Assembly (NCBI RefSeq): GCF_009909145.1
Contig: NZ_JAAAPJ010000005.1
Location: 336,470-400,469, forward strand
Length of the DNA stretch: 64,000 nt
Direction of reading: 5' to 3'
Origin: Corallococcus silvisoli
GTDB taxonomy: Bacteria; Myxococcota; Myxococcia; Myxococcales; Myxococcaceae
The notes beneath the pieces are model-generated. The model was not told where the DNA came from and did not search any database. It saw only the letters and a list, made by a program, of their open reading frames with translations. Shown one piece after another: positions 12,834 through 13,463 of the stretch. A program made the translations under genes and the position numbers. Each line of letters starts with the position of its first letter. Within the stretch, counting starts at the first letter, position 1.

Positions 12834-13463
12834 TCAGACCCCGTAGAGGATGATCTTGTTGCCCTTGCGCACCCAGCGGCCACTGCGGCCACCGGTGCCC
12901 GCGGCGTGCGGCATCTGGGCGGCGAAGCCAGGGGCGAACTTCTGGATGGCCTGGTGGACGGCGGCGCCAGCCACCTGCTGGGGCGAAGCATTGTCGGGCG
13001 AGTTGAGGGCCGTCTTGGAGGCGTCCGAGGCGAGTCGGACAATCTGCCGGGCCACCTCGAACTCGCGGTCCTCCTGGCTCAGGCCCTCCAGTTCGAGCCC
13101 GAACGCCTGGCCCGCCATGGAGGCCAGCTTGCCACCGACGGCGCCGCCCACGCCGGGGACCACGAGGTTGCCGAGCGCGCTGCCCACCATCGGCAGGGCC
13201 TGCCTGGCCAGTCCCTTGAGCATGCCCCCGAGCTGCTTGCCCAGCGGAGACTTCACGACCTTGCCGACGGCGCTGCCCACCTTCTTGATGATGTTGCCGA
13301 GGAACTGATCCAGCTCCTGCTCGTTGCTGACCTCCAGCAGCTCCGAGGCGAGCTCGTTCAGCTCGTTCTCGTTGAAGACCTCGCCCCACTCCGACTCGGC
13401 GTTGAACTCGAACTCGAACGACTCCCCCTCCAGTTCCTGGTAGGTGCGATCCACGTCATGCAT
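12834..13463 (-). CDS. Small protein (about 210 aa) with a strongly acidic N-terminal segment and Lys/Gly-rich amphipathic GxxxG-type repeats; first gene of the operon
   Basis: ATG at 13463 with GAGGA 8 nt upstream. Residues 1-60 are E/D/F/N-rich (EGESFEFEFNAESEWGEVFNENELNELASELLEVSNEQELDQF). Then GNIIKKVGSAVGKVVKSPLGKQLGGMLKGLARQALPMVGSALGNLVVPGVGGAVGGKLASMAGQAFG. No Cys. Basic C-terminal tail RWVRKGNKIILYGV. Confidence 0.55.
   Translation of the reverse strand: MHDVDRTYQELEGESFEFEFNAESEWGEVFNENELNELASELLEVSNEQELDQFLGNIIKKVGSAVGKVVKSPLGKQLGGMLKGLARQALPMVGSALGNLVVPGVGGAVGGKLASMAGQAFGLELEGLSQEDREFEVARQIVRLASDASKTALNSPDNASPQQVAGAAVHQAIQKFAPGFAAQMPHAAGTGGRSGRWVRKGNKIILYGV

Follow-up and report, generated by a model that had tools for sequence, protein, structure and literature searches.

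In a 64,000-nucleotide stretch of the Corallococcus silvisoli genome (contig NZ_JAAAPJ010000005.1, positions 336,470 to 400,469; hereafter the window, with coordinates counted from its first letter), gene A (12834..13463, minus strand) encodes a 209-amino-acid (aa) glycine-zipper helical protein. Protein A represents a conserved helical glycine-zipper module of ~150 residues on its own, with a short tag at either end. Its gene heads, often in several copies, a cassette controlled by sigma-54 and an enhancer-binding protein (EBP), in which genes A, B, C and F and the activator form the core and the accessory genes vary. The cassette is spread over many mainly Gram-negative environmental phyla. 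On the basis of sequence, structural models and analogy we tentatively suggest, with somewhat less than even confidence, that A may be a latent membrane- or envelope-inserting module of an effector or lysis cassette that lacks prior characterisation.

Family and distribution of protein A

The open reading frame (ORF) and its translation give a protein that runs from MHDVDRTYQEL to RWVRKGNKIILYGV and corresponds to WP_143900934.1 (exact Corallococcus match). We place the start at 13463 because all homologues begin with MHDxDRT; the ATG occupies 13461-13463 and is preceded by GAGGAA 6 nt on its 5' side. An extended ORF of 292 aa that reaches 13712 was ruled out as gene A, given that MHDxDRT is the start of every homologue.

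A search of 5.8 billion proteins detected 1760 homologues of A that align over the full length with 50-88% identity, none of them with a Pfam domain, and a profile search over 1.84 billion cluster representatives gave 2374 clusters (clustered at 50% identity). When one genome per species was scanned, relatives were present in at least 421 species from about 10 phyla, with full-length identities of 45-60% across phyla. The taxa include Myxococcota, Planctomycetota, Nitrospirota, Acidobacteriota, Chloroflexota, Verrucomicrobiota and Bacteroidota (Runella, Dyadobacter) as well as Gamma-, Beta- and Alphaproteobacteria (Methylococcus, Cellvibrio, Nitrosomonas, Thauera, Bradyrhizobium and Methylocapsa). 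Conserved blocks are distributed over the whole length of the protein (MHDxDRT, ELDQFLG, SPxG, ALPxxGxALGNxxxPGxGGxxG, GLELEGLSxEDxEFExAKQFVR, FAPG and the C-terminal GRWVRKGNKIVLYGV).

Searches of Pfam, NCBIfam, PADLOC and PDB sequences returned no meaningful family match for A, and PDB sequence and profile searches returned only designed helical repeats (E 1.5e-4), a compositional similarity. The label "DUF697 family" given by JGI to some relatives is not reproduced by Pfam and was taken as a low-complexity artefact. Among the glycine-zipper families of Pfam (Gly-zipper_Omp, PF13488), the window protein has no match at E <= 0.1 and its relatives reach at best 16.2 bits against a cut-off of 25. 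There were no Pfam matches to synucleins, apolipoproteins, phasins or gas-vesicle proteins; a clear match to a conserved structural family of the last two types was the outcome against which the initial annotation had set its reading. A also lacks the PspA_IM30 domain (PF04012) or an ESCRT-III-like fold, and it lacks a colicin-type pore-forming domain, judged by the family hidden Markov model (HMM) and by the ten-helix bundle with a buried hydrophobic hairpin. It does not qualify as a double-glycine class II bacteriocin or microcin, with no Pfam bacteriocin match and neither an ABC transporter nor a small immunity gene in the conserved cassette. A is thus a member of none of the named families considered, and only the description as a protein with conserved GxxxG helices applies. 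Literature searches found no paper on the A, B or C families, and neither the polymorphic-toxin catalogue nor the paper on nucleoside-triphosphate (NTP)-dependent conflict systems describes the A family.

Sequence features and predicted fold

The initial annotation had described an acidic head followed by a Lys/Gly-rich core, and the composition agrees with this: residues 1-53 contain 18 Asp/Glu and a single Lys/Arg, and residues 54-121 contain 8 Lys/Arg, no Asp/Glu, 15 Gly and 8 Ala. It was also correct that A has no Cys and no signal peptide; the N-terminus (MHDVDRTYQELEGES) is acidic and without a hydrophobic h-region, so A lacks a Sec-type signal. A classical transmembrane segment was not detected, the highest Kyte-Doolittle (KD) hydropathy of any 19-residue segment being 1.36 (residues 92-110).

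The amphipathic helices that had been proposed are found in part of the core. Residues 49-75 reach a helical hydrophobic moment of 0.54-0.65 and residues 70-93 one of 0.44-0.49, whereas residues 88-120 are not amphipathic and form a weakly hydrophobic, Gly-rich stretch with a low moment (mean hydrophobicity 0.5-0.57). On helical projection the core as a whole has its periodicity maximum at 90-95 degrees (z 3.3-3.8), which corresponds to i/i+4 spacing, and not at the ~98-100 degrees of 11/3 helices; together with the absence of a Pfam match, this speaks against the suggested resemblance to synucleins and apolipoproteins. The GxxxG/AxxxG spacing noted earlier was confirmed, with seven GxxxG motifs in residues 54-127 versus 3.5 expected from composition, a modest excess (P about 0.025). 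Fourteen Gly residues (56, 67, 75, 79, 80, 94, 98, 104, 106, 107, 110, 118, 122 and 127) are 95-100% conserved and lie within or adjoining predicted helices. A therefore has the repeated, conserved (G/A/S)xxxG spacing on helices by which glycine-zipper helices are described. A Walker-A reading of the segment GVGGAVGGKL was ruled out, its Lys being unconserved.

Protein A can be divided into three parts. Residues 1-30 (13374..13463, minus strand) comprise the MHDxDRT cap, in which M1 and H2 are invariant and D3, D5, R6 and T7 are at least 90% conserved, and a disordered acidic/aromatic tail (EFEFNAESEW). Residues 31-180 (12924..13373, minus strand) form the repeatable helical module, delimited by the predicted helices and by its duplication in polyproteins. 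It consists, in order, of an acidic helix (ELxELLxVSNEQELDQFLG), cationic amphipathic helices, a Gly-rich hairpin, the GLELEGLSxEDxEFExAKQFVR helix and FAPG, and it includes the Lys/Gly-rich core (residues 54-127; 13083..13304, minus strand) with the seven GxxxG motifs and the motif ALPxxGxALGNxxxPGxGGxxG. Residues 195-209 (12837..12881, minus strand) are a C-terminal beta-hairpin tag, GRWVRKGNKIILYGV, of the motif GRWxRxGxxIxLxG, with G195, R196 and W197 invariant.

In an AlphaFold model built with a 55-sequence alignment, the acidic helix and the other helices are predicted to form one compact bundle (mean predicted local distance difference test, pLDDT, 77.7; predicted template modelling score, pTM, 0.69). 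Helices are predicted at residues 32-43, 48-66, 72-93, 108-120, 130-153 and 161-176, mostly with pLDDT above 88. The acidic helix (residues 31-53) has pLDDT above 90 and is integral to the predicted bundle, and the C-terminal hairpin is predicted at 196-207 (strands 196-200 and 203-207). Residues 12-25 (pLDDT below 50), the Gly loop 95-100 and residues 186-193 are disordered in the model. We regard A as a conserved helical module with terminal tags that is probably folded.

In a second subfamily, likewise mostly stand-alone, MHDxDRT is replaced by an N-terminal CxCxxC cap, whose Cys motif suggests that it is small and binds metal. These caps read MHxxNCxCPKC or MQESGCGCAKC (P0392, P0390, P0411 and P0450; L051:16957-18921), and both subfamilies often occur in tandem within one locus.

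A sigma-54-controlled cassette

A is the first gene of the minus-strand operon A-B-C-D-E-F, and gene G is convergent with it on the plus strand. As had been noted from the window, the HExxH protein B is encoded directly downstream, starting 6 nt after the stop codon of A. B follows A in 84/84 loci from about 10 phyla. Of these loci, 78 contain C, 58 contain D, 49 contain F and 49 contain the activator, and contig ends account for many of the absences.

A sigma-54 (-24/-12) promoter, TGGCACAGCCGCTGC, is located at 13522..13536 on the minus strand, 59-73 nt upstream of the A start codon. It is the sole match to TGGCAC-N6-TGC in the 64-kb window when both strands are scanned, and it lies on the correct strand for A. 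In 48 of 83 related loci, the -24/-12 consensus precedes the first A copy by no more than 250 nt. Gene G (5211..6671, plus strand) encodes a sigma-54 EBP with a Sigma54_activat domain (PF00158, E 2.2e-53), an AAA lid and HTH_8; such a gene stands at the cassette end in 49 loci. By sequence, the window thus has both hallmarks of a sigma-54-dependent operon, a TGGCAC-N5-TTGC promoter and an EBP with an AAA+ domain. The N-terminal ~170 aa of G, before the AAA+ domain, have no Pfam match, and by eye they resemble a CheY-like receiver (VIVFDE...VLAVATTG...ASDVLVW). Just upstream of the -24 element with respect to transcription of A is an inverted repeat, TCGCTCCTGC-N15-GCGGGAGCGA (13550-13584), which could be an activator site or a chance GC-rich palindrome.

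The cassette has a patchy distribution and is horizontally spread. It is present on a few megaplasmids, including pBPHY01 of Paraburkholderia phymatum STM815, which has a minimal version (A, B, C, F and activator), and neither A nor the cassette was found in phage genomes. The P. phymatum cassette (L085, record 1545793-1565049) is in a genetically tractable rhizobium; its A protein, 350 aa long, contains an inserted (GEYQ)n repeat within the acidic tail as well as a degenerate second module, and a strict pattern search gave no sigma-54 promoter at this locus.

Divergent from the cassette in the window are two tandem MuiA-family genes (DUF4139/DUF4140, TIGR02231; 13647-16040 and 15983-17599, both plus strand). 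As called, the two ORFs share 58 nt, which means that the start of one was probably misassigned; in other genomes these genes show no synteny with the cassette. Upstream of A, several Myxococcota and Alphaproteobacteria have a divergent gene whose product contains a partial A-like module. In the Pendulispora rubella locus (L001; 9090-9758 and 17678-20669, both minus strand), the partial A-like protein ends in ...ATWVRQGDRLIFTM, and a second pair of alpha-oxoamine synthase (AOS)-like and Amidohydro_2 genes and a gene for an OmpA-like protein are on the opposite strand.

Polyproteins, shared tags and accessory genes

Many loci carry two to four A genes in tandem, and many database proteins contain two to four A modules in one polypeptide. 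In these polyproteins the MHDxDRT cap is present on the first module only and the GRWxRxGxxIxLxG hairpin on the last only, and the repeated unit extends from the acidic helix to FAPG. Examples are P0241, P0250, P0245, P0242 and L072:7601-10648; in P0242 (1036 aa) there is an unrelated insert of ~450 aa rich in AQGKPI/AQGKRV repeats.

The features of A are also found in other products of the cassette. Targeted HMM searches of the loci identified, in other phyla, variable genes between C/D and F whose products have an acidic/aromatic N-terminus like that of A and an Arg-rich RRPWG stretch, followed by a PG_binding_1 and/or a GIY-YIG-like domain. They often continue with an embedded A-like module and then Amidase_2, or an OmpA-like and a hydrolase-like domain. 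Further variable genes encode a trypsin-like protease, M20 peptidases, HNH-like proteins (VHHWIPFKY) and weakly APOBEC-like proteins. Acidic/aromatic N-termini of the A type occur on gene E and on accessory proteins, and the A-type C-terminal hairpin motif also ends a Cys-rich protein (L020) and an E-like protein (L042). The accessory region is polymorphic between genomes. Gene E of the window belongs to this variable payload class, and by sequence the module and tags are common to variable, envelope-directed, toxin-like proteins.

The Bacteroidota cassettes (Runella, Dyadobacter) have an HNH-like VHHWIPFKY gene (L017:15430-16437, L058:15261-16202) and a weakly APOBEC-like gene (E 0.003-0.006; L017:14602-15249, L058:14721-15227), whose products both have acidic N-termini; no obvious immunity gene lies between these payload-like genes.

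Proteins encoded by genes B to F

Gene B (11484..12827, minus strand) encodes a 447-aa HExxH protein identical to WP_161664629.1 of C. silvisoli. It has more than 5700 homologues (63-88% identity), none with a Pfam domain, and no match in Pfam, NCBIfam, PADLOC, PHROGs or PDB sequences. Its motifs are HEVGHQ at residues 190-195 (nt 12246-12260), E233xxxD237 and DPHP at 270-273, and H190, E191, H194, E233 and D237 are invariant in 43 sequences. In the AlphaFold model (pLDDT 84, pTM 0.81), HExxH lies on helix 182-199, preceded by two beta-strands, and ExxxD on helix 218-244. This predicted arrangement resembles that of gluzincins (thermolysin-type HExxH...ExxxD). B differs from these enzymes in its large N-terminal bundle of helices and its invariant, Arg-rich loop, and it can be assigned neither to the zincin fold nor to a peptidase family. 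The initial suggestion that B processes A is therefore consistent with the HExxH and ExxxD motifs and is not matched by the predicted fold, and B may be regarded as a putative protease. The pairing of A with B is conserved rather than accidental. A processing step is plausible because polyproteins of two to four copies exist and the N-terminal acidic/aromatic tag is shared with other cassette proteins.

Gene C (9610..11481, minus strand) encodes 623 aa. Its product begins with a beta-sandwich that is variable, and the C-terminal ~300 aa form a conserved domain that contains many invariant Trp, Arg, Glu, His and Tyr residues. Apart from N-terminal CarboxypepD_reg/PKD-type domains in some orthologues, C has no match in PDB, Pfam, NCBIfam, PADLOC or PHROGs.

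Gene D (8509..9594, minus strand) encodes a BioF/Kbl-like pyridoxal phosphate (PLP) enzyme of the AOS type (Pfam Aminotran_1_2, E 1.1e-9); its NCBIfam matches (bioF, Kbl and CqsA-type autoinducer synthase, E 3e-9) are all far below cut-offs. D retains the Lys of a PLP-lysine-like motif (GSMAKALG). It reads LDDTQALG where BioF/Kbl enzymes have D-x-A-H-G, and the Nitrosomonas orthologue has the same DDTQ; the PLP-stacking His appears, by sequence comparison, to be replaced by Gln.

Gene E (7530..8516, minus strand) evolves rapidly, and its product combines an acidic/aromatic N-terminus with an Arg-rich stretch and, at the C-terminus, a GIY-YIG-like domain. Its relatives are present in at least 26 loci and are often fused to PG_binding_1 or to an A-like module. 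Identity to the C. carmarthensis orthologue is 47% for E, compared with 86% for A, 87% for B, 79% for D, 79% for F and 84% for G. Gene F (6686..7522, minus strand) encodes an Amidohydro_2 metal-dependent hydrolase (PF04909, E 4.6e-23) and is found in 49 loci; its probable start is MIIDCHCH at 7522, within an ORF that reaches 7657. No transmembrane segment or signal peptide was detected in the cassette proteins of the window.

Comparison with known systems

Glycine zippers have been described in two secreted effectors with which A can be compared. In Tde1, a DNase delivered by the Agrobacterium type VI secretion system (T6SS), the N-terminal glycine zipper is required for membrane permeabilisation and translocation (PMC10240207), and TelE, an effector of the type VII secretion system (T7SS), contains a glycine-zipper segment (bioRxiv 10.1101/2022.09.07.506920). 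Like A, both have consecutive conserved GxxxG motifs in a helical segment that is sometimes fused to an enzymatic toxin domain, and permeabilisation of the cytoplasmic membrane by these segments has been proposed or shown. We detected no sequence homology between them and A, which in contrast is predicted to be a folded bundle of 150 residues with its own acidic helix and tags. The A cassette also differs in that it has no T6SS, T7SS, adaptor or immunity gene and is a sigma-54 cassette with the family-less proteins B and C.

The contact-dependent glycine-zipper bacteriocins CdzC and CdzD of Caulobacter (PMC5380434) are, like A, small Gly-rich glycine-zipper proteins of a multi-protein system, which in the case of Cdz is used in bacterial antagonism. 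Cdz has type I export and an immunity protein, whereas the A cassette has neither; no homology was detected, and A is far more conserved and more widespread.

A third likeness is with phage tail proteins. The motif LPxxGxxxGNxxxPGxGGxxGxxLxS is found in IMG/VR viral proteins with 33-45% identity over 31-70 residues, and PHROGs classifies the proteins that bear it as tape-measure-like or large tail proteins (PHROG 167 and related). These are motif-level matches only, without full-length relatives of A in IMG/VR; A itself has weak matches to a tape-measure PHROG (E 9e-4) and to a solved tape-measure protein (E 0.49). Though short and biased, the phage matches point to tail proteins ejected into the host envelope. 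Tape-measure and tail-tip proteins share with A a weakly hydrophobic, Gly-rich hairpin motif. Tape-measure proteins often carry peptidoglycan-hydrolase domains, and the fusions of the A module have the same association with such a domain (amidase). The cassette contains no other phage genes.

Proposed role and alternatives

We tentatively propose that, when the activator fires, A would be made in quantity as a soluble, self-neutralised bundle, its acidic helix lying against the cationic amphipathic helices and shielding the Gly-rich hairpin. This bundle would then open and insert into, or permeabilise, a membrane or the envelope through its amphipathic and GxxxG helices, much as has been described for effectors with glycine zippers and suggested for the tape-measure proteins of phages. 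Partners with the same module or tags (PG-binding amidase, OmpA, GIY-YIG-like, HNH-like and trypsin-like protease) may be variable payloads that use or accompany this insertion, and B would be the prime candidate for the activation step, in which it would recognise the shared tags and trim them. The target could be the envelope of the producer (regulated lysis or abortive death) or a competitor. In support of this proposal we list the family and its synteny, the regulation, dosage and modularity, the shared tags, the chemistry, the fold, the phage echoes, the precedents and the fast-evolving gene E.

Several points weigh against it. The most hydrophobic segment of A (KD 1.36) is under the usual transmembrane threshold and there is no true hydrophobic hairpin; the GxxxG excess is modest, and small-xxx-small motifs also pack soluble helices. 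Cross-phylum conservation as high as that of A is unusual for toxins, and the phage motif matches are short and compositionally biased. The conserved cassette has no immunity gene, exporter, ABC transporter or membrane protein, the predicted fold of B has no structural match among known metalloproteases, and the roles of C, D and F are left unexplained by the model. A bolder version of the proposal, which we consider doubtful, takes A, B and C as the core of a hitherto unrecognised, horizontally mobile machine, gated by sigma-54, for breaching the envelope or delivering effectors. B, as a new type of HExxH enzyme, would here unmask the soluble, self-masked bundle of A, and A would carry or admit tagged payloads (amidase, OmpA-type, nuclease-like and protease proteins) across a membrane without classical secretion. 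If true, this would add a mechanistically new class of system, serving either regulated lysis or abortive death, or else attack on other bacteria.

A different, non-membrane role is possible, though we do not expect it: A could be an adaptor or carrier whose module packs homotypically and whose tags dock B and/or C, so that A would be an abundant scaffold recruiting tagged effectors. Hcp/VgrG-type carriers likewise exist in free and effector-fused forms. The occurrence of the module free, in tandem and fused to diverse enzymatic domains would fit such a role, as would the tags, which are placed only at the polypeptide ends and are shared with unrelated cassette proteins, the compact soluble bundle predicted by AlphaFold, the lack of a true transmembrane segment and a very high conservation that is typical of structural or machine parts. 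However, nothing in the cassette is recognisable as an assembly, tube or shell protein, neither B nor C has a known match, and the adaptor explanation does not account for the cationic amphipathic and glycine-zipper chemistry or for the association with PG-binding domains. An envelope-stress role similar to that of PspA, in which sigma-54-induced A would stabilise damaged membranes and the PG-binding and amidase partners would repair or remodel the envelope, seems unlikely. The pspA gene with pspF is a comparable arrangement of a sigma-54 operon and its activator, and A, like PspA, is encoded first in such an operon beside the activator, is helical and amphipathic with about 210 aa, and has envelope-directed partners. 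In contrast to PspA, A has no PspA_IM30 match, G has an N-terminal receiver-like region and the partner genes are entirely different; moreover, the GIY-YIG-, HNH-, deaminase- and trypsin-like accessory genes and the fast-evolving E resemble conflict effectors rather than repair functions, and the cassette is patchy and horizontally spread.

The remaining two explanations regard A as a precursor. According to the initial annotation, removal of the acidic head by B would yield one or more secreted, short, cationic amphipathic antimicrobial peptides (AMPs), as from dermaseptin-type precursors, in which an acidic segment likewise precedes a cationic amphipathic Lys/Gly/Ala-rich segment. The charge segregation and amphipathic helices of A, the invariable adjacency of A and B, the HExxH and ExxxD motifs of B and the multi-copy polyproteins are in line with this, and multi-copy precursors are known in related eukaryotic AMP families. 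We nevertheless find it improbable. Dermaseptin-type AMPs have a hypervariable mature peptide, whereas A is conserved at 45-60% identity over its full length across phyla, including the "propiece" and the C-terminal half, which is predicted to be folded in this 209-aa protein. The acidic helix is part of the predicted compact fold and is repeated with every module; at the acidic/basic boundary (residues 53/54) there is no conserved dibasic or GG site, and the invariant F54-L-G56 lies inside a predicted helix. A signal peptide, an exporter and an immunity gene are lacking, and the predicted fold of B matches no known protease. The earlier interpretation of A is thus partly supported, its dermaseptin-like component being the part that we abandon. 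Very unlikely, in our judgement, is a scaffold for a modified product, in which A or its C-terminal part would be post-translationally modified by C, D, F and M20 peptidases, or serve them as a carrier, and then be cleaved by B, in the manner of ribosomally synthesised and post-translationally modified peptides (RiPPs) or pearlins. Such a pathway would make sense of the enzymes in the cassette (D in 58 loci, F in 49 and M20 in some), of the putative peptidase directly after A and of the precursor-like multi-copy A. Yet A is conserved as a whole and has no hypervariable core, it lacks clusters of Cys, Ser or Thr, the searches gave no match to a known family of RiPP maturases or recognition elements, and the module, unlike precursors, is also fused to large enzymes.

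Significance

A, B and C are family-less proteins that form one cassette in at least 421 species. Its hosts include nitrifiers (Nitrosomonas, Nitrospira), methanotrophs, myxobacteria, Acidobacteriota, Planctomycetota, Chloroflexota and Bacteroidota, and it is also found on rhizobial megaplasmids. B and F retain 50-87% and 51-78% identity across phyla, respectively, implying that a so far undescribed function is under strong selection. The modular tags and the variable, toxin-like, PG-directed payloads point to a conflict or lysis system that is missing from present catalogues of defence and secretion systems. Should A prove to be a self-masked module that inserts into membranes, it would also offer a compact domain for membrane translocation that lends itself to engineering; otherwise the cassette is still well defined and testable, with a minimal version in the tractable Paraburkholderia phymatum STM815 (pBPHY01).

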